From: a virus
Taxonomy: Duplodnaviria > Caudoviricetes
Strand: one strand, 5' to 3'
Virus record (IMG/VR): IMGVR_UViG_3300019874_000012
Coordinates: 1-40,213 of that record
DNA: 40,213 nt
Each line of letters starts with the position of its first letter. Position 1 is the first letter of the stretch. The notes under the pieces were generated by a model. The model searched no databases. It saw nothing but the letters and a program-made list of their open reading frames with translations, and was not told the origin of the DNA. The position numbers were made by a program, and so were the translations under genes. Positions 22,807 through 37,009 of this stretch are shown here, piece by piece.

Positions 22807-23226
22807 ATGGCTGGCTTTCCTACTGTTGCTAAAGGTAATAAGATCGGCGAAAAGGCTAAAAGACCTAAACCTGGAATGCCATTTGATAAAAAAATTATCG
22901 AAGATCTCATAATCACTCACCAAGGTAACCTGTCTAGGGCTGCCGATGCATTAGGGTCTAGTAGGGGTGCTATTAGGAACTTCGTTGATAGACATCCTGA
23001 TGTGCAACAATTATTAAAAGATCAAAGAGAAAGACAATTGGATACGTTAGAACAAAGTTGCTTTGATAGAGCTATAGAGTCTAATGATACCACTCTTCAA
23101 CTGTTCTTGTTAAAGACACAAGGCAAATCACGGGGTTATGATCAAGATGAAGCTAAGAATGCAGCTAAGGACATAGCTACAGCAGCCTTTGACTTCATAG
23201 TGAGCAAGAGCAAGCAAGCTACATAG
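22807..23226 (+). CDS. terS: Terminase small subunit
   Basis: HTH GNLSRAADALGSSR, then LDTLE......I...DTT..LFLLKTQGKSRGY, characteristic of TerS; GAGG RBS. Confidence 0.75.
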   Translation: MAGFPTVAKGNKIGEKAKRPKPGMPFDKKIIEDLIITHQGNLSRAADALGSSRGAIRNFVDRHPDVQQLLKDQRERQLDTLEQSCFDRAIESNDTTLQLFLLKTQGKSRGYDQDEAKNAAKDIATAAFDFIVSKSKQAT

Positions 23227-23650
23227 CAGTGTGAGGACATCATGTGCCTCAACACATACCCTACAACCTACATAACATATACATCTACCTAGTAACAACA
23301 TGAACATGGCGTTACACTAGGGTCCCATCCAACCTTTGGAATGCTAGAAAAGATGGTAGGGGTGCAACCTTAGTTAGAACCGTTACCTGTTATATCTATA
23401 TCTCATGCCCTCTCTCACATTCAACCCTACTTTACAAACAACAAACTCTTTACAACTTGCAAGCTGAATAACTGAATAAGGCGGATAGAAAATTTCCAAC
23501 TAAACAAAACCTTTACAACATCTACCCCCTACCATTTATATGGTGGAAAAATTTACCTTGTTGAAAATGACATAAAAAAACTTTAGGTAAAATTTCCTAC
23601 AGAAAAATTTTTATGGATGGTAAATTAAGTATTTACAAGATGGAGGATGT

Positions 23651-23894: not shown

Positions 23895-24119
23895 GTGAAG
23901 ATGAGTGAAGATTTTCAAGATGAGCTGAAAGAATTGATGAAGTTATATCAAGGGAATATGAAGGCGCATAAAAACAGTATGAAAGATATTATTCCCGTGA
24001 TGGTTCATTATATGGAGAATTTTTGTAAGAAATTTAATGAATATAGTATTGCAGAAAATAATTTATTATGCTTGAAAACAAAGTTAGGTTGTAAAGATCA
24101 GGACGGTGAAGATGAGTGA
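23895..24119 (+). CDS. Hypothetical protein
   Basis: 74 aa ORF, GAGAGG RBS. Confidence 0.55.
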   Translation: MKMSEDFQDELKELMKLYQGNMKAHKNSMKDIIPVMVHYMENFCKKFNEYSIAENNLLCLKTKLGCKDQDGEDE

Positions 24120-24333
24120 GATTCCTATGCATCAGAAGAAGCAATATTTGTTGATGATTGATGAGGTTGGCATGGCTATGTTGGCTAGATTGATGCCGTG
24201 TTTGGGGTTTGTTCCTGTTGAGGGGATGCCTTTAGATAATAATCCTGGTTATCAGGTATTGGTGAGTGCTTTATCTAAACCTGTTGATCCTGTTGTTTTA
24301 GAGGCTAAACCTGAAGAGTTTGTTGTGCAGTGA
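24106..24333 (+). CDS. Hypothetical protein
   Basis: 75 aa ORF; shares the GGTGAAGATGAGTGA start sequence with 23895. Confidence 0.55.
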   Translation: MKMSEIPMHQKKQYLLMIDEVGMAMLARLMPCLGFVPVEGMPLDNNPGYQVLVSALSKPVDPVVLEAKPEEFVVQ

Positions 24334-24338
24334 TATTT

Positions 24339-24386
24339 TAGCGGTTCCTTTTAGGAATGTAATATGCGCTATAACGCGTACCGCTA
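24339..24386 (+). ncRNA. Small three-way-junction RNA element
   Basis: TAGCGGT/ACCGCTA closing stem enclosing TCC-TTTTA-GGA and ATGCG-CTATAA-CGCGT hairpins. Confidence 0.5.
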
Positions 24387-24389
24387 TTT

Positions 24390-24518
24390 GAGGTGATGGC
24401 TGAGTGGCTTAAGGCGACCTTCTTCCAGTAACAAGGAAGATAAATTGGCTATAGGCTAATAGGTGAGTCTAGGGGTTAAAATCCCTGGGCTTCATATGTT
24501 CGAATCATATTTACCTCA
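24390..24518 (+). ncRNA. tRNA-like RNA with type-II body and branched insert in place of the anticodon arm
   Basis: Acceptor GAGGTGA/TTACCTC+A; U8-G9; D arm GCT-GAGTGGCTTAA-GGC; T arm ATATG-TTCGAAT-CATAT; ~12-bp variable arm 24465-24492; ACCT/AGGT stem enclosing two hairpins; no encoded CCA. Confidence 0.85.
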
Positions 24519-24521
24519 TTT

Positions 24522-24624
24522 GACATGAGCCTAATAGAGCAACCATATTTTAGCGGTCTTACTGAAAGGGAAGCGCGATCACAGGGGCACGTGACACTCG
24601 TGCCAATAGCTCATGTCTTTTTTT
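24522..24624 (+). ncRNA. Structured RNA element closed by a 9-bp stem and followed by a U tract
   Basis: GACATGAGC (24522-30)/GCTCATGTC (24609-17), internal GGCACG-TGACACT-CGTGCC hairpin, then TTTTTTT. Confidence 0.55.
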
Positions 24625-24634
24625 AGGAGTTGTT

Positions 24635-24856
24635 ATGTTATGTGATAATTGTTGCTCTGATATGCATAGAGCTATATCTCTATTGCAAGGTAAAACAGTG
24701 CTTAAGATTGTATATGAATGTGAAGGTGGAGATTGTGATATTCAATTGAAAGAGCGGTTATATAATTATTACAATCAATTGACAAAGAAAGATCCGACTC
24801 TAAAAAATAAGACCTATTATCTTAACGGACAAAAAGCTGATTTGGACAATTTATGA
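24635..24856 (+). CDS. Small Cys-containing hypothetical protein
   Basis: AGGAG RBS; CDNC...CxxxxC; ATGA overlap with the SPFH gene. Confidence 0.6.
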   Translation: MLCDNCCSDMHRAISLLQGKTVLKIVYECEGGDCDIQLKERLYNYYNQLTKKDPTLKNKTYYLNGQKADLDNL

Positions 24857-25689
24857 TAAGCCTTAGAAACAAAATAACTTTACTTTCCCTTGGATTATTG
24901 TTTTTTACTTGGTGTATGTTTTTTAAAATGATCTCTCCTGGATATGTTGGAGTGGTTGTTGATATGCTGGGTGATAATAAAGGGGTAGAGGCTAAAGAAT
25001 TGCATGTGGGGATGCATTGGATTGCACCTTGGAAAAACGTTTATGAATTTCCTATATTTGAACAAAATAACACTTGGGAAGGAGATCATGAAGGATTTAA
25101 TTTTCAAACTAGCGAAGGAATGGCTGTATCTGCAGATATCGGCATTACATATCATCTTAGACCAGAATCTATCCCACTTATTTTTCAAAGATATAGACGT
25201 GGAATGGATGAAATTACTAATGTTTTTATTCGCAACTATATTAGGGATGCTATCAATAAGTCTGCTTCTAAGACAGCCATTGAAGATTTATATTCAGGAA
25301 AAGAATTCTTCTTTGAGGATGTAGAAAAACATGTTAGGGATGATTTATCGCCTATTGGCATTGAACTTACTAGAATTTATCTTATCGGTAGATTTCACTT
25401 TCCGCAAAATGTCATTACTGCCTTAAATGCTAAGATAGAAGCCATGCAGAGGGCGCAACAAAGAGAAAATGAACTACGGGAAGCAGAAGCAGAGGCTAAA
25501 AAGCAGATTGCTAAGGCAGAAGGGCAGGCAAAATGTGCTATCCTTCAGGCAGAATCAGAAGCTAAAGCTAATTTAGTGCTGGCTAAATCCGTTACTACAG
25601 AATTAATTCAATGGCAAGCCGTTCAGAAATGGGATGGTAAAATGCCGCATGTTACTTCTGGAGCCATGCCATTTATTGAGGTGAAATAA
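24853..25689 (+). CDS. SPFH/Band-7 (prohibitin-like) membrane protein
   Basis: N-terminal TM, PGYVGVVV, G.HWIAPW, FQTSEG..V.ADI.ITY, AEAEAKKQIAKAEGQA coiled coil, KWDGKMP. Confidence 0.93.
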   Translation: MISLRNKITLLSLGLLFFTWCMFFKMISPGYVGVVVDMLGDNKGVEAKELHVGMHWIAPWKNVYEFPIFEQNNTWEGDHEGFNFQTSEGMAVSADIGITYHLRPESIPLIFQRYRRGMDEITNVFIRNYIRDAINKSASKTAIEDLYSGKEFFFEDVEKHVRDDLSPIGIELTRIYLIGRFHFPQNVITALNAKIEAMQRAQQRENELREAEAEAKKQIAKAEGQAKCAILQAESEAKANLVLAKSVTTELIQWQAVQKWDGKMPHVTSGAMPFIEVK

Positions 25690-26870
25690 TGCAAATAATT
25701 GATGGCATACCCGTTTGGGGAGAACCATTACCCGAAGCGGTAGCACAAATGAAGGCGGTAATGAATTATGAAAAAAAACCTGAGTATGTCGCTCTTATGG
25801 CAGATCATCATATTGGATATAGCGTGCCTGTGGGGGGTGTGGTGGCTTATGAACGAGCTATCAATGTCAACGGTGTTGGTTTTGATATCGCTTGTGGCAA
25901 TAAAGCTGTGTTGCTCGATTGTTCTGCTGAATCAGTCAAAGGAAATATCTACAGATCAATGAATGAAATCCAAAAGCACATCAGCTTTGGAATGGGAAGA
26001 AGAAACAATGAAAGGGTAGAGCATGAACTTTTTGATGATCCTGTATGGAATGACATTCCTATCTTGGCTAGCCTTAAGGATCGCGCCGCCGGTCAACTCG
26101 GTACTGTTGGTGGTGGAAACCACTATGTGGATGTTTTTGTGGATGAGTCCAATCGTGTTTGGGTTGGGGTTCATTTTGGTTCAAGGGGTCTCGGTCATAC
26201 TATCGCAACTCATTTCGTTAAAGTAGGAGGAGGAAAAGATGGAGTCCACGCAGAGCCAGTCATTTTTGATGAAGATTCAGACCTCGGACAGCAGTACCTT
26301 AAATGTATGGAGCTTGCTGGTCGATATGCTTACGCAGGGAGAGATTGGGTATGCGAAAGAGTTGCTAAAATTCTCAAAGGGAACATCGTCGAATCAATCC
26401 ATAATCATCATAACTTTGCATGGAAAGAACGACATTTTGATAAAGACCTTTGGGTTATTCGAAAAGGAGCAACTCCCGCTTTCCCAGGTCAAAAGGGTTT
26501 TGTTGGCGGATCTATGGGAGATATATCGGTTATCCTTGAAGGGATGGAAGAACCTGAGTCCCAAGCAGCTCTTTACTCTACGATTCATGGAGCAGGCCGT
26601 CAGCTTGGAAGAATACAAGCCAAAGGAAAATACGACAGAAAAGGAAATTGTATCCGACCTGGTATGGTTGATAAGACCGCCCACTCCGCCTGGATTAAAA
26701 GATTGGGTGTCGAATTGCGTGGAGGAGGTCTTGATGAATCACCGTATGCATATAAACGAATAGAGAGCGTTCTAGAAGCGCATAAATCTACGGTTAACAT
26801 TCTACACACTTTAACACCTATAGGCGTTTGTATGGCTGATGAACGCGAATTTGACCCATATAAGGACTAA
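25689..26870 (+). CDS. rtcB: RtcB RNA 2',3'-cyclic phosphate/3'-phosphate:5'-OH ligase
   Basis: ADHHIGYSVPVGG, VGFDIACG, LGTVGGGNHY, HFGSRGLG, HHNFA, RKGATPA, GSMG, HGAGR, DESPYAYK. Confidence 0.97.
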   Translation: MQIIDGIPVWGEPLPEAVAQMKAVMNYEKKPEYVALMADHHIGYSVPVGGVVAYERAINVNGVGFDIACGNKAVLLDCSAESVKGNIYRSMNEIQKHISFGMGRRNNERVEHELFDDPVWNDIPILASLKDRAAGQLGTVGGGNHYVDVFVDESNRVWVGVHFGSRGLGHTIATHFVKVGGGKDGVHAEPVIFDEDSDLGQQYLKCMELAGRYAYAGRDWVCERVAKILKGNIVESIHNHHNFAWKERHFDKDLWVIRKGATPAFPGQKGFVGGSMGDISVILEGMEEPESQAALYSTIHGAGRQLGRIQAKGKYDRKGNCIRPGMVDKTAHSAWIKRLGVELRGGGLDESPYAYKRIESVLEAHKSTVNILHTLTPIGVCMADEREFDPYKD

Positions 26871-26872
26871 CT

Positions 26873-27895
26873 ATGTGGCTCGGAAAATCCCCTGTCTCTG
26901 ACGCTTACATGAAAATTGCTGTTCAAGAGAGCGATAAATTGGTTTATGTTGGCAAAATTATTTCCTTAGAACCTATAGAAGGGGCTGATTTTATCGTTTC
27001 AGCCACTGTTGTCTGCGGGAAAGGAGGAAAATGGAAGGGGATTGTTAAAAAAGATCAATTTGAAATCGATAGTTGGTGTAATGTTTATCTCCCAGATGCA
27101 TTAATTCAGCCTAATGAAGCAATGCAATTCATGGAAGCAACTGGTTGGCGTGTAAAAATGCGTCGATTTAAAGGCGCGCCCAGTGAAGTAGTAATTATGC
27201 CTGTACCAAAAGCTTATCATGAGTCAATGGAAGTTGGGACTGATTTAACTTTATGGTTTGGTGTTACAAAATACCATAAACCAATCCCAACGCATCTTAA
27301 TGGCATTGCAAAAGGGTATTTTCCTGACTTTATTCCTAAGACCGATGAACCTAATTACCAGAAATGTGAAGATCTTGTAGATGCATTGCAAGGGAAATTC
27401 TATTATGTTACAGAAAAAGCTGATGGCTCTTCAACTACTGCTTATAGATATAAAGGAAACTTTGGCGTTTGTAGCAGAAATGTTGAATTGCTTAGAAATG
27501 AGGAAAATGGCTTCTGGAAAGTAGCTATTAAATATAAATTAGAAGAAAAGCTGCCAGATGGTATAGCTCTTCAATGGGAAACTTGTGGGCCGGGAATCCA
27601 GAAAAATCCTATGGGGCTTTCAGAAATTGACGGATTCGCATTTAGTGCTTATGATATTGTTGAGAAAAAATATCTTGAGTTTGCAGAGTTCTTAACGCTC
27701 ATTGATAGATTAGACTTTCCTACTTGTAAAATACTAGATATTAAAAGTAGCTTTGATAAGGAAAAGATAGCAACTCTTGGGGAAGGAAAATATTCTAATG
27801 GTCATGAGAGAGAAGGTGTTGTTGTCAGATCACAAGATAATATAGGACATGCACCTATCAGTTTCAAAGTTATAAATCTAAATTATGAGAAATAG
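26873..27895 (+). CDS. ATP-dependent RNA ligase, DRB0094/Rnl2-type, with N-terminal OB-like domain
   Basis: Motif I EKADGSS, CSRN, QWE..GPGIQKN, motif IV EGVVV, motif V FKVIN; N-terminus VGKIISLEPIEGADFI resembles a tRNA-binding OB fold; FPDFIPKTDE linker. Confidence 0.92.
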   Translation: MWLGKSPVSDAYMKIAVQESDKLVYVGKIISLEPIEGADFIVSATVVCGKGGKWKGIVKKDQFEIDSWCNVYLPDALIQPNEAMQFMEATGWRVKMRRFKGAPSEVVIMPVPKAYHESMEVGTDLTLWFGVTKYHKPIPTHLNGIAKGYFPDFIPKTDEPNYQKCEDLVDALQGKFYYVTEKADGSSTTAYRYKGNFGVCSRNVELLRNEENGFWKVAIKYKLEEKLPDGIALQWETCGPGIQKNPMGLSEIDGFAFSAYDIVEKKYLEFAEFLTLIDRLDFPTCKILDIKSSFDKEKIATLGEGKYSNGHEREGVVVRSQDNIGHAPISFKVINLNYEK

Positions 27896-28150
27896 ATGAG
27901 CGATCCTTATAAGATAACGGTATGGGCGCAAATGTTCTTTGATGATGGAAGCCTTACTCAAGGTGTTCGAATAAGTGCCGAATGGTTAGAAGAAACAAAT
28001 GCCGACAAAATTGATCAAATAGCTTCATCACTATTAAAATCAGTAAACCGTCAAGAAGGTTGGCTTCTTATCTGGGGCGCAGGAAATATGGAATTTAACC
28101 ATTACCCTACTTCTTTTTCTGGTAAGCAGGCTTTGGGGTTAGACTCTTAG
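27896..28150 (+). CDS. Hypothetical protein
   Basis: 84 aa ORF starting immediately after the ligase stop. Confidence 0.55.
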   Translation: MSDPYKITVWAQMFFDDGSLTQGVRISAEWLEETNADKIDQIASSLLKSVNRQEGWLLIWGAGNMEFNHYPTSFSGKQALGLDS

Positions 28151-29504: not shown

Positions 29505-29593
29505 AAAATCCCCTTAAATTTTAAAATTATAAAAGATGTTATGCACCCTCCTAAAAATCCAGATATAAGTGCTATAATATGGCATTCATTCAC
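29501..29593 (-). CDS. 30-aa membrane peptide MNECHIIALISGFLGGCITSFIILKFKGIL
   Basis: GTGA overlaps with both the upstream and downstream genes; one TM segment. Confidence 0.5.
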   Translation of the reverse strand: MNECHIIALISGFLGGCITSFIILKFKGIL

Positions 29594-30225
29594 AAAATGA
29601 CCCTCACAGGTTTATTAACAGGTTGATATCTTTCGTTTACAATACTAGCGTTGACAAGTCTTATTCCATTCGTATGTTGACTATTACCGTAAGCTTCATG
29701 GATATGACCAAATACATGCAATTTTGGTAGAATCTGTAAAGATTTCATCCATAAACTTAGACTTCCAACGCTTGGGCCAATGGACCCATCTCTAGTTTTT
29801 ATCCAGTCATAATTCCCAAATGATGGGCTATGAGTAATCAAAATATCAGTATCATGAGGAATTAAGTCCCATTTTTCAGCTAATTGCTCGTCATTATCCA
29901 AAGTAAAAGCGCAACAATGGGGGTTAATTCCAGGAAAGCTGGCTGTCCAAGGCGATCCCCATATCTTTAGTCCTTCGAATTCGGTTCCTGAATCGCATAG
30001 ATATTTTATGTGACCATCACACGAATAATTCCCTATTAAATAGTTGTCGTGATTTCCAGATATTACAATAATCTGAATGTAATCTTGTATATTTAACCAG
30101 CACAAAAACTTATTATGTTCATCTTCTGTATCCCTAGCCGTCAAATCCCCAGCCACAATAAGAAGATCGCCTGCTTCTAACGTCGGGTAATGCCCATGGA
30201 GGTCGCTAATGCAATCAATGATCAT
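29590..30225 (-). CDS. Calcineurin-like metallophosphoesterase (MPPED/239FB-like)
   Basis: ISDLHG, AGDLT, SGNHD, ITH, FGHIHE motifs. Confidence 0.93.
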   Translation of the reverse strand: MIIDCISDLHGHYPTLEAGDLLIVAGDLTARDTEDEHNKFLCWLNIQDYIQIIVISGNHDNYLIGNYSCDGHIKYLCDSGTEFEGLKIWGSPWTASFPGINPHCCAFTLDNDEQLAEKWDLIPHDTDILITHSPSFGNYDWIKTRDGSIGPSVGSLSLWMKSLQILPKLHVFGHIHEAYGNSQHTNGIRLVNASIVNERYQPVNKPVRVIL

Positions 30226-30364
30226 TCTTATCCTTCATAATATTGGCCACCTTTCAGCTTATATATTTTCCTCTAAGCAAAGTTTCTTTGTCAATAAATA
30301 TCTTAAATATGTTGTCAAGTAATTATTTTACTTGTTAAAAGAAACATTTGATATAAGAAGACAT

Positions 30365-31858
30365 ATGACATTAACACAAGAAAAAGCTTTTGAATTGCTT
30401 GCAGATAGAGAATGGCGGTTATCTAATCTTTATAAGATTAAGGATAAAGAAGGAAATGTAGTTGATTTTTGTCCAAATTGGTCGCAGAAAATTCTTTTGA
30501 AAGATTCGCATACATTAAACATTGTACTTAAGGCCAGACAACTTGGGATTACTACTTTCCATGCTATTTTATTCTTAGATACCTGCTTATTTAATAAGAA
30601 CGTAAATGCGGCTATCGTTGCTGATAGCAAGCCTATTTCTCGAGAAATCTTCATTGATAAAGTAAAGTTTGCTTATGACAACCTACCTCAATTCGTTAAG
30701 GATATGTGCCCAGCATATAGAGATAACGTTCATGAAATGCGGTTCAGTAATGGTAGCGTATTTAGGGTAGCCACATCTTTACGCGGTGGAACTATCCAAT
30801 TCTTGCATATCACCGAATTTGCCAAGATATGTCAGGAAAATCCTAGCAAAGCTAATGAGATTATTTCAGGTGCTCTTAATGCTGTACAAGCAGGTCAATT
30901 TGTTTGCATAGAATCGACAGCTAGAGGTAGAGAGGGTCATTTTTACTCATTATGTAAATCAGCTCAAGCATTACAAGATCAGGGTATTGAACTTGGAACT
31001 TTAGATTGGAAATTATGGTTCTTTTCTTGGTGGGAACATCCCGACTATGTAATTGATTCAAAAAATGTATTGATAACTAAAGAGATGTCAGAGTATTTTG
31101 AGTCTTTAGAAAGTAAAGGAATTATTTTAATTCCTGAGCAAAAAGCCTGGTATGTAAAGAAGATGCAGACTCAAGGGGATTATATGAAGAGGGAATATCC
31201 CTCAACTCCTGAAGAGTCATTTGAAGCGGCTAATGAAGGGTTTTACTTTGCCAAGATGATGTCTATTGCTAGACAAGAAAGACGAATCTGCCATGTACCT
31301 TATGACGAAAGCGCCAGAACCTATACAGCATGGGATATAGGAATAGGTGATAGCAATGCGATTTGGATCTTTCAGACCATTGGAAAAGAGATCCATTGTA
31401 TTGATTACTATGAAAATAGTGATGAAGCGTTAACGCATTACATAAATTGGTTAAAGAATAAACCTTATATATATGAAAAACACTTTATGCCACACGATGC
31501 AGCTTCAAGATCTTTACAATCTGGGAAAAGCCTCGTTGATATTGCAAGAGGCATGGGTCTCAAAGTTGATGTATTGCCAAGAGATACCAATGAAATGTTT
31601 GGAATTGAATGCCTTAGAAATATGCTACCGAGATTTTTCTTTGACCAAACAAAGTGTGAAAAAGGAATAAAAGCTATTGAAAGCTTTAGAAAAGAGTGGA
31701 ATGAAAAGTTAGGTTGCTACAGAGAGAAAAGCCATCATGATTGGGCATCTCATGGGGCTAAGGCTTTAATTTATTGCTCTGAAGCAGTTCAAAGAACAGG
31801 ATCGGGAGCTGGAATGACAGCAGAAGAATGGGATCGCATGCGGCGACAGTGGCTCTAA
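30365..31858 (+). CDS. terL: Terminase large subunit
   Basis: LKARQLGITT Walker A, LHITE Walker B, ESTA, AWDIGIGD nuclease motif, PHDA, HDWASH; ORF track starts at TTG 30332, ATG 30365 is an alternative start. Confidence 0.95.
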   Translation: MTLTQEKAFELLADREWRLSNLYKIKDKEGNVVDFCPNWSQKILLKDSHTLNIVLKARQLGITTFHAILFLDTCLFNKNVNAAIVADSKPISREIFIDKVKFAYDNLPQFVKDMCPAYRDNVHEMRFSNGSVFRVATSLRGGTIQFLHITEFAKICQENPSKANEIISGALNAVQAGQFVCIESTARGREGHFYSLCKSAQALQDQGIELGTLDWKLWFFSWWEHPDYVIDSKNVLITKEMSEYFESLESKGIILIPEQKAWYVKKMQTQGDYMKREYPSTPEESFEAANEGFYFAKMMSIARQERRICHVPYDESARTYTAWDIGIGDSNAIWIFQTIGKEIHCIDYYENSDEALTHYINWLKNKPYIYEKHFMPHDAASRSLQSGKSLVDIARGMGLKVDVLPRDTNEMFGIECLRNMLPRFFFDQTKCEKGIKAIESFRKEWNEKLGCYREKSHHDWASHGAKALIYCSEAVQRTGSGAGMTAEEWDRMRRQWL

Positions 31859-36259: not shown

Positions 36260-37009
36260 ATGACTGCACCAATTGGAACATCACTAAACGTCAACACAGG
36301 GACACGAGAACTTAGCCAGGTAACAAATACCTACGGCGGATATCTCCAGTCAGCTGGCGCTGCATACAATCTGGTATTGCCTTGGCAAGCTGATAAATTT
36401 GAATGGTTCAACTATACAAAGTTTGCAACCGATACAAATAACGTTGAAGGCGTTTGGTTTAGAGACTTCCCAGCAGGGGACGCTCTGATCATCGCTAGAG
36501 GCACCACTACTTTGACTTCTACATTAGAAGCTACAAATGGTGTGACAATCGCAAATACAACTGGTGGATTTGCAAATGAGCATCTGGTAATCACAGGTAT
36601 CACTACTGCAACACCTGGTGTCGTAACGACTTCTACTAATCATAATCTTTCAGATTTTGATCGTGTTGTTCTTACGAAAATCATTGGTACTGCTGCGGCT
36701 GAATTGAATAACAAAACTTATGTAGTTCAGGTTTTATCTGCTACCACATTCGCTTTGTATGACACATTCGGTCTACCAGTTCCAGTGGTTGGAGCTTATA
36801 CATCAAGCGGACAAGTCACTAAGATTGCTCCTCTTCTTGGGCAAGTTGGATCTCAAAGCAACTTTCCAGCTCCTCAGAACTCAATTCAAGACTATCCAAT
36901 CCAATATCGATTGCTATTAGGAACGGCTGTTATGGGAGCTGATAACGATATTATCTACTTCCAAGCAACTAAGTTCAATGCGTACTTCAATTTGGGTGAC
37001 GTAGCTTAA
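36260..37009 (+). CDS. Capsid decoration / minor capsid protein with FCCH-like insertion
   Basis: Follows the MCP gene with a GGAGG RBS; ITGITTATPGVVTT...HNLSD.D.V...ELNNKTYVV...TTFALYD...AYTSSG. Confidence 0.65.
   Translation: MTAPIGTSLNVNTGTRELSQVTNTYGGYLQSAGAAYNLVLPWQADKFEWFNYTKFATDTNNVEGVWFRDFPAGDALIIARGTTTLTSTLEATNGVTIANTTGGFANEHLVITGITTATPGVVTTSTNHNLSDFDRVVLTKIIGTAAAELNNKTYVVQVLSATTFALYDTFGLPVPVVGAYTSSGQVTKIAPLLGQVGSQSNFPAPQNSIQDYPIQYRLLLGTAVMGADNDIIYFQATKFNAYFNLGDVA

Follow-up and report, generated by a model that had tools for sequence, protein, structure and literature searches.

The virus record IMGVR_UViG_3300019874_000012 (Caudoviricetes; 40,213 nucleotides (nt), hereafter the window, by which we mean the whole stretch analysed) is a complete-looking phage genome that encodes a P22-like portal, in agreement with its original description as a 40-kilobase (kb) podovirus-like genome. 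Its terminase small subunit-like gene and its terminase large-subunit gene enclose a region with three folded RNAs, E1 to E3, and genes for an SPFH/Band-7 protein, the RNA ligase RtcB and an ATP-dependent RNA ligase of the Rnl5 family. The original prediction, made from the sequence alone, had read this region as encoding one membrane-scaffolded ribonucleoprotein complex for RNA repair. Comparison with relatives leads us to favour, with a probability of about 0.6, another interpretation: the region is a variable accessory slot, filled with RNA-repair and tRNA-mimic parts that are likely to act separately.

According to this interpretation, the two ligases would mend RNA broken by host defences. 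RtcB would join 2',3'-cyclic or 3'-phosphate ends directly to 5'-OH ends. The Rnl5 enzyme would act on duplexes, sealing nicks with 3'-OH/5'-phosphate ends that a metallophosphoesterase encoded nearby perhaps heals beforehand. The RNA region may be what is left of a tRNA array, together with two small folded RNAs. E1 would be liberated from the transcript it shares with E2, as a small and stable RNA in which a T-loop docks on a second loop, giving a compact fold that resembles the top of a tRNA. E2, a tRNA look-alike without an anticodon loop, would be cut out by host tRNA-processing enzymes and would decoy tRNA-targeting enzymes of the host, its acceptor arm and elbow being kept and its anticodon apex being free to vary. 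The SPFH membrane protein would be a further occupant of the slot, with no shown tie to the other parts.

The evidence comes from the distribution of the parts among relatives, which were collected by scanning viral contigs with SPFH (35 loci), RtcB (the best 80 of 211), Rnl5 (2 loci) and terminase (71 loci). Removal of four duplicates, one fragment and one weak match left 29 SPFH records, which were searched whole; the 80 RtcB loci formed 66 clusters at 95% identity, for which neighbours within 5 kb were counted; and the 20 records of at least 31 kb among the 71 terminase loci made up a terminase-selected set. In the latter set, SPFH and RtcB were each found in three records and Rnl5 in six, and a single record of the 20 carried all three genes. 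RtcB is present in six of the 29 SPFH records and in five of the 18 complete SPFH phages. Near RtcB, SPFH was encountered in 6/66 clusters, Rnl5 in 13/66, a phosphoesterase in 18/66 and a tRNA call in 30/66, and SPFH and Rnl5 together in 1/66. Two ligases in a 40-kb phage are thus less unusual than had been claimed. A search without a positive control found SPFH in none of 32 RtcB records chosen for lacking a nearby SPFH gene, and Rnl5 and SPFH are not associated with each other (Fisher p 0.63). In the closest RtcB relative (L037, 84% identity) a ParA-like gene pair occupies the place of SPFH, and the slot between the genes for the 75-amino-acid (aa) and 84-aa proteins holds different small genes in each relative inspected.

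The RNAs reassort as well. E1 is present in two of the seven phages that carry both SPFH and RtcB, three of five such records tested (two of the three being complete) have no match to a tRNA model, and in phage G001 a swollen tRNA-like RNA lies 24 kb away from the SPFH-RtcB pair. Free reassortment of the genes without a conserved upstream RNA, which had been named beforehand as the outcome that would speak against a repair complex, is largely what we observe.

Several points weigh against separately acting parts. In all seven phages with both genes, the SPFH gene precedes that of RtcB, both on one strand and at most 1.4 kb apart, and all seven belong to one 20-row RtcB subclade, with none among the 47 rows outside it. 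Between SPFH and Rnl5 of locus L013 (6018-6080) there is a 20-codon remnant with the C-terminal end of RtcB, which appears to be a sign of rtcB deletion. Phage G002, the closest relative for the slot as a whole, has E1, an E2-type RNA, SPFH, RtcB and Rnl5 in the same order as the window. A shared ancestral order with a cooperation that was often lost could explain this pattern. Identities of SPFH and RtcB are uncorrelated in the seven phages with both (rho 0.23, p 0.19), but this Mantel test covers just those 7 taxa, and the flank-limited counts around RtcB miss genes located beyond 5 kb. Moreover, the decoy role of E2 and all activities assigned to the slot are predictions from sequence. Taking into account the constant order of SPFH and RtcB, its confinement to one subclade, the remnant in L013 and the order in G002, we conclude that an ancestral order exists in one lineage, from which each part is freely lost.

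The order shared with G002, the upstream position of SPFH in 7/7 phages within one RtcB subclade and the translational coupling seen in the window would also fit a phage copy of the Band-7/b7a-tRNA/RtcB system, in which SPFH oligomers would hold E2 and RtcB at the membrane as a single repair complex; a neighbourhood of RtcB, Band-7 and a predicted tRNA-like RNA has been published, as outlined in 10.1101/312249. We consider this unlikely because RtcB is missing from 13 of the 18 complete SPFH phages, 60 of the 66 RtcB clusters have no nearby SPFH gene, and an E2-type RNA adjoins SPFH in two of the seven phages with both genes. Chromosomal relatives of SPFH (64-73% identity, in three Chlamydiota genomes) stand alone, without RtcB or a tRNA in the flanks retrieved. 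Finally, among 50,697 annotated phage records 479 carry SPFH relatives and 658 RtcB relatives, numbers that make co-location in an accessory slot easy.

A gene that co-occurs with Rnl5 more often than SPFH does is that of a metallophosphoesterase, which was found near RtcB in 12/14 rows with Rnl5 versus 7/53 rows without it, in several gene orders, and in the terminase-selected set in 4/6 records with Rnl5 versus 4/14 without. The association (Fisher p 6e-7, uncorrected) is a lead only because it includes just three independent pairs on supported branches (sign test p 0.5). In the window, the metallophosphoesterase gene is located 1.7 kb downstream on the opposite strand, outside the region delimited by the original prediction, and its product is a candidate end-healing partner of the Rnl5 ligase; a polynucleotide kinase was not found in the window. 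The same protein scores 200 bits against the PADLOC candidate PDC-S10, the sole PADLOC match. The features of the slot and its surroundings are listed in Table 1.

Table 1. Position and support of slot features and flanking landmarks in the window (ORF, open reading frame; bp, base pair)
Feature	Position	Strand	Remarks
Terminase small subunit-like gene	22807..23226	+	upstream landmark; weak phrog_4044 match, E 1e-4
74-aa and 75-aa ORFs	23895..24333	+	upstream border of slot
E1, 48-nt three-way-junction RNA	24339..24386	+	8 distinct members; no Rfam family
E2, 129-nt tRNA-like RNA	24390..24518	+	z -4.5; same build in L104
E3	24522..24617	+	stem-closed; 9-bp closing stem; four short motifs; weakly supported
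73-aa ORF, four Cys	24635..24856	+	no family; function unassigned
SPFH/Band-7, 278 aa	24853..25689	+	PF01145 100.6 bits, phrog_200
RtcB, 393 aa	25689..26870	+	PF01139 229 bits, phrog_1075
Rnl5-family (DraRnl/NgrRnl-type) ATP-dependent RNA ligase, 340 aa	26873..27895	+	PF09414 and N-terminal PHA02142 OB-fold match
84-aa ORF	27896..28150	+	conserved phage gene, downstream slot border
MPPED2-like calcineurin-family metallophosphoesterase	29590..30225	-	PF00149; MPPED2 E 6e-30
Terminase large subunit	30332..31858	+	downstream landmark of slot

The five co-directional ORFs that had been placed, with three upstream structured elements, within 24333..28150 were all confirmed in position. Successive ORFs overlap by ATGA at the first junction and by TAATG at the second, and are separated by 2 nt at the third and by 0 nt at the fourth. 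The tight coupling thus exists, but it is particular to the window genome: SPFH directly adjoins RtcB in one of the seven phages with both genes, and in the others 0.4-1.3 kb of genes or tRNAs lie in between. SPFH combines its PF01145 match with a membrane anchor in the form of a single N-terminal hydrophobic segment (hydropathy peak at residues 9-27). RtcB scores above the PF01139 cut-off and, when aligned to archaeal RtcB 4dwr, retains the conserved Asp, Cys and His motifs, whose roles we take to be metal binding and guanylylation. As the catalytic motifs of both ligases are intact, the earlier proposal that the region serves RNA repair against host RNA-cutting defences seems sound.

The second ligase is most similar, among solved structures, to the Naegleria RNA ligase (E 5e-32, residues 32-334), and it has an N-terminal domain followed by a nucleotidyltransferase (NTase) domain with the motif I lysine. 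Its score with TIGR02306 (DRB0094 equivalog) is 78.1 bits and thus below the cut-off of 151.15 bits. It had been taken for an Rnl2-type enzyme. Rnl2 ligases are defined, in the account of PMC4408790, by a signature C-terminal domain after the NTase domain, but the NTase domain of the window ligase ends at residue 333-335 of 340. Given its N-terminal domain and the absence of a C-terminal appendage, we assign it to Rnl5 and not to Rnl2. The same source describes Rnl5 enzymes as sealing 3'-OH/5'-phosphate nicks in duplexes in vitro, and Rnl1 and Rnl4 as the ligases tailored to loop breaks (PMC4408790); the window ligase is therefore no obvious mender of breaks in anticodon loops. Thus, the two ligases cover both end chemistries, as had been proposed, but on differing kinds of break. 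A 235-aa ORF with a ligase-like KxDG motif, which the Rnl5 query missed, was noticed in L104 (record G069) about 1.2 kb after a tRNA-Pro gene.

The two small proteins at the ends of this gene series differ in distribution. For the 73-aa protein a large protein search returned only itself, and tblastn detected counterparts at 46% in L073 and 33% in L098 and L131; two of its distant relatives sit inside tRNA arrays. By contrast, the 84-aa protein has 53 relatives besides itself. Its gene, originally counted as part of the repair unit, occurs in 9/20 terminase-selected records, three of which are free of any ligase, and marks the border of the slot. Neither the ESM Atlas nor the family and profile libraries provided a usable family for either protein.

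Three folded elements are located within 24334-24634. Compared with 200 shuffles each, E1 folds with z -2.1 (8/200 as good), E2 with z -4.5 (0/200) and E3 with z -2.4 (4/200). Of the three structured RNAs originally proposed, E1 and E2 are confirmed by relatives, but E3 has a single homologue. E1 and E3 have no match among the Rfam 15 covariance models, and neither the RNA region nor E1 had a blastn match among annotated phages.

Judged by comparison of its members, E1 is a well-supported, uncatalogued RNA motif, and it is the new item here. A closing stem of 7 bp encloses two 3-bp hairpins, the first with a variable loop and the second with a loop of 8 nt, and a 9-nt linker lies between them. 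In 8/8 members this linker has the sequence A-UGWRA-UA-U, and the second loop contains a conserved UAYAA; both pentamers vary at position 3. The members were collected by blastn, which yielded four relatives, and by an exact pattern from these and the window copy, five sequences in all, which retrieved 9 viral and 10 metagenome stretches; eight distinct members including the window remained after removal of duplicates, the window's own record L134 and one chance match. The latter, L135, was rejected because its pattern lies inside an ORF, 6/10 stem pairs form and the model does not match. A model built from five other phages recognizes the window copy (E 7e-9) and two members outside the model. 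It detects E1 in 8/80 records at E < 1e-4; two weaker matches (E 0.02 and 0.04) are outside this count. In the alignment, which was fitted to the model and whose members are related to one another, 97% of 104 cells pair and 9/13 pairs have changed on both sides; 0/500 shuffles equal the observed covariation, and slid structures reach 40-59%. The closing stem, which is outside the search pattern, forms 10/10 pairs in six of the eight members, as opposed to about 4 in 10,000 for random flanks. An interpretation of E1 as a DNA promoter (extended -10 look-alike) was ruled out, since the flanking stems covary, including G-U pairs.

E1 lies 2-6 nt before a tRNA body in seven of the eight members, and SPFH is nearby in only two: E1 tracks tRNA arrays, not SPFH. 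Its model matched in 2/42 terminase-selected records and in 0/121 Chlamydiota genomes (about 49 candidates scored per genome, no positive control). No description of E1 was found in the papers searched. Two side observations concern the surroundings of E1. In L105 (2140-2300) about 170 nt of structured-looking non-tRNA sequence without an Rfam match follow E1 in a tRNA array, and in the window an exact 13-nt direct repeat (24333-24345 and 24545-24557) links the start of E1 with the middle of E3 and is possibly a relic of duplication or recombination.

The linker of E1 fits the T-loop consensus (YGNRA)NY given in 10.1101/2022.12.26.521914, with an invariant A-U closing pair. Its UAYAA loop is equally compatible with a second T-loop or with U-ANA, which the same source presents as the T-loop receptor of FMN and cobalamin riboswitches. 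Conceivably, E1 might form an interdigitated double T-loop on its own and hold adjoining or host tRNAs by the elbow, thereby shielding them or steering their processing. The two pentamers with their variable third position and the location just before tRNA bodies would suit such a function, as would the T-box motif, which according to PMC7583486 is built of AGAGA and UGxRA T-loops. Yet the second pentamer has an A at position 2 and might make a purely structural contact, the motif alone is described in PMC7583486 as insufficiently specific for tRNA without another contact, a position before tRNAs is expected of any member of a tRNA array, and three of the eight members were chosen by the pattern itself. 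We therefore regard tRNA gripping by E1 as quite doubtful. The same low odds apply to its boldest form, in which E1 would be a minimal 48-nt double-T-loop RNA and a fourth tRNA-elbow clamp after RNase P, T-box and L1 stalk, which phages of environmental chlamydiae would place before tRNA genes to shield or hold tRNAs during repair by RtcB and Rnl5.

Alternatively, E1 might be a small self-cleaving or processing element that frees the tRNAs of an array, with RtcB handling the resulting cyclic-phosphate ends. Compatible with this model are the constant placement of E1 immediately ahead of tRNA bodies, the covarying stems around a single-stranded core that does not vary, and the presence of RtcB within about 2 kb in five of the eight members. 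It is very improbable nonetheless, as no Rfam match was obtained for E1 in the window or in five homologous loci, and the 7-bp closing stem and U-rich trailer resemble those of the neighbouring tRNAs, which suggests a substrate of processing and not its agent.

E2, overlapped by the most stable of 617 window tiles, has a 7-bp acceptor stem, a D arm of class II (Ser/Leu) type, a T arm and a 12-bp variable arm, with A as discriminator and no encoded CCA. In place of the anticodon loop there are two hairpins on a 4-bp base. The Rfam tRNA model (RF00005) matches it partially, with 18.8 of 29 bits and thus below the cut-off. E2 therefore differs from a decoding tRNA in gathering score, and it also has neither a 5-bp anticodon stem nor a 7-nt loop; ARAGORN in its default mode found no decoding tRNA in the window genome. 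A scan with the D arm of E2 gave four matches, namely L104, L164, L166 and one ordinary tRNA-Ser. L104 keeps the two-hairpin build with a different insert sequence, and L164 and L166 have an E2-type body with a plain 7-nt loop that stands alone, without RtcB or SPFH within 3 kb. In L003, one long hairpin takes the position of the anticodon arm. Thus, the apex is wholly different among members that share the D arm: it is free to vary, and acceptor and elbow are conserved. This variation and the lack of a conserved U33 argue against both decoding and a spliced intron. With respect to the putative decoy function, YrlA is of interest, for which PMC7790460 puts forward an uncut tRNA-like domain that may inhibit an anticodon nuclease.

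Splicing of E2 by nuclease cleavage and RtcB, the tRNA-splicing ligase of archaea and animals, into a working tRNA-Gly(UCC) is highly improbable: ARAGORN with its intron option does call a tRNA-Gly(TCC) with a 35-nt intron, and U33, the anticodon, A37 and an insert after position 37 are in place in the window, but this arrangement fails in L104 (which keeps the two-hairpin fold without U33) and in L049, the apparent anticodons vary from member to member, the window yielded no splicing endonuclease, and the spliced molecule would depart from the identity rules of bacterial tRNA-Gly by its U-U mismatch at 31-39, its 12-bp variable arm and its A73.

Abnormal anticodon arms are common in the phage group, occurring in 17/72 distinct tRNA bodies of its loci, a count from which two tandem-tRNA artefacts were dropped and in which one normal-looking class II tRNA was counted as normal. 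A second tRNA-like family has a class I body and, instead of an anticodon arm, a long hairpin whose conserved base contains a bulged G. Its members (L048:9815-9918, L049:9426-9529, L051:10035-10141, L062:9575-9679 and L096, minus strand, from 3014) sit in tRNA arrays near RtcB, Rnl5 and phosphoesterase. Class II bodies with anticodon loops shrunk to 3-6 nt were seen in L068 (4769-4878, directly preceding rtcB), L100, L096 and L074. A Trp-like variant with odd T loop and anticodon arm (L003:4840-4914, L037:3515-3590, L136:490-565) comes after tRNA-Asp in three E1-bearing arrays. Further observations are a tRNA call with anticodon CUA in an array upstream of SPFH and Rnl5 (L139:1445-1524), calls with anticodon UUA in L049 and L074, and runs of isolated T-arm hairpins right after rtcB, without full tRNA bodies (L072:6170-6400, L001:7745-7935).

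E3 shares its four motifs, in the same order and spacing, with L104, where it likewise follows an E2-type RNA downstream of rtcB. When folded by itself, the conserved core does not exceed shuffled sequences in stability (z -0.09), and two pattern scans (one match, then five, four of them inside ORFs of unrelated contigs) added no member. E3 is probably a real element, but two copies are too few to describe it.

The host of the phage is likely a member of the Chlamydiota, as its capsid protein shares 94% identity with a protein under the label Candidatus Rhabdochlamydia, a relative of the 84-aa protein bears the same label, and three Chlamydiota genomes contain the SPFH relatives of 64-73% identity mentioned above, all such labels coming from metagenome bins. 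Two findings weigh against this assignment: a search of 121 Chlamydiota genomes did not detect the portal protein, and the closer SPFH copies (85-87%) are on two short contigs labelled Bacteroidales and Bacillota. One of the latter (L139) carries neighbouring genes of the phage group and looks like a mis-binned piece of a phage.

By family search, the window also encodes terminase, major capsid protein, ERF, RusA and a serine recombinase, and the terminase small subunit-like gene recurs in 18/20 terminase-selected relatives. A scan for promoters and terminators gave nothing usable (21 promoter-like sites versus 17.1 expected, 2 terminators versus 4.0). An AT-rich non-coding stretch of 400 nt with short direct and inverted repeats (23230-23650) follows the terminase small subunit-like gene and is a candidate promoter or packaging region. 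Two proteins of the virion region (163-978 and 36260-37009) match the E1_FCCH domain of ubiquitin-activating enzymes (PF16190).

The findings point to a large group of phages, tailed and likely to infect environmental Chlamydiota, whose investment in tRNAs, tRNA look-alikes and RNA ligases implies that their hosts possess defences directed against tRNAs. Since relatives with and without each part are available, the slot offers a compact natural test case for the link between Band-7, tRNA-like RNA and RtcB, and the small size of E1 makes it accessible to direct probing, binding and structural studies.

The genomic association of RtcB with a Band-7 gene and a predicted tRNA-like RNA, to which the original prediction had correctly pointed, is credited to Burroughs and Aravind 2016 in 10.1101/312249; that source describes the link as lacking experimental validation as of 2018. 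Like this system, the window has a Band-7 gene adjoining rtcB and a tRNA-like RNA nearby (E2). Unlike it, the window belongs to a phage of 40 kb and contains, beyond these parts, an Rnl5 ligase and two more RNAs, and most of its relatives have not kept the three-part linkage. The b7a-tRNA is said there to resemble an authentic tRNA strongly, whereas E2, compared with it by description only, has no anticodon loop. Because of the failing linkage and the nature of this comparison, we state that the window resembles the Band-7/b7a-tRNA/RtcB system and do not class it as a member.

RNA1 of phage T5 (NC_005859 30501-30644), annotated as 'tRNA-like stable RNA with unknown functions', shares with E2 a class II body, a branched insert for the anticodon loop and a long variable arm (predicted folds), as well as a normal T arm and a location in a phage tRNA region. 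It is longer (144 versus 129 nt) and belongs to an unrelated, much larger phage; blastn against annotated phages detected no similarity between E2 and RNA1, although short divergent RNAs can escape this method. The RNAs rnaC and rnaD of T4 and RNAI, RNAIV and RNA2H of T5 are, like E1, small folded non-tRNA RNAs among phage tRNA genes, but E1 is far smaller and its model had no match in the T4 and T5 stretches examined. With the double T-loop of T-box stem I, RNase P and the L1 stalk, as presented in PMC4810234 and PMC7583486, E1 shares two short conserved pentamers, both single-stranded and parted by a short helix, one of which fits UGNRA; it differs in its off-consensus second pentamer and the absence of a second tRNA-contacting element. 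Further double-T-loop RNAs in viral transcriptomes have been called for in reviews (PMC4919913).

With DraRnl and NgrRnl, whose phage homologues had already been reported according to PMC4408790, the window ligase shares domain layout and motif I lysine; it differs in its score below the TIGR02306 cut-off and in that its nick-sealing activity is predicted from sequence. Jumbo phages, as surveyed in PMC7824862, can combine RtcB, Rnl1 or Rnl2, end-healing phosphatases and tRNAs in one genome. The likeness lies in more than one ligase class, a phosphoesterase and tRNAs being together in one phage genome, and the difference in the 40-kb size of the window, its Rnl5 in place of Rnl1 or Rnl2, the lack of a detectable kinase and the lack of a decoding tRNA. 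The gene set is therefore no new machine but a counterpart, in a small phage, of RNA-repair neighbourhoods already known; what is new is the E1 motif, together with the presence of such an RNA toolkit in small phages that are likely those of Chlamydiota.

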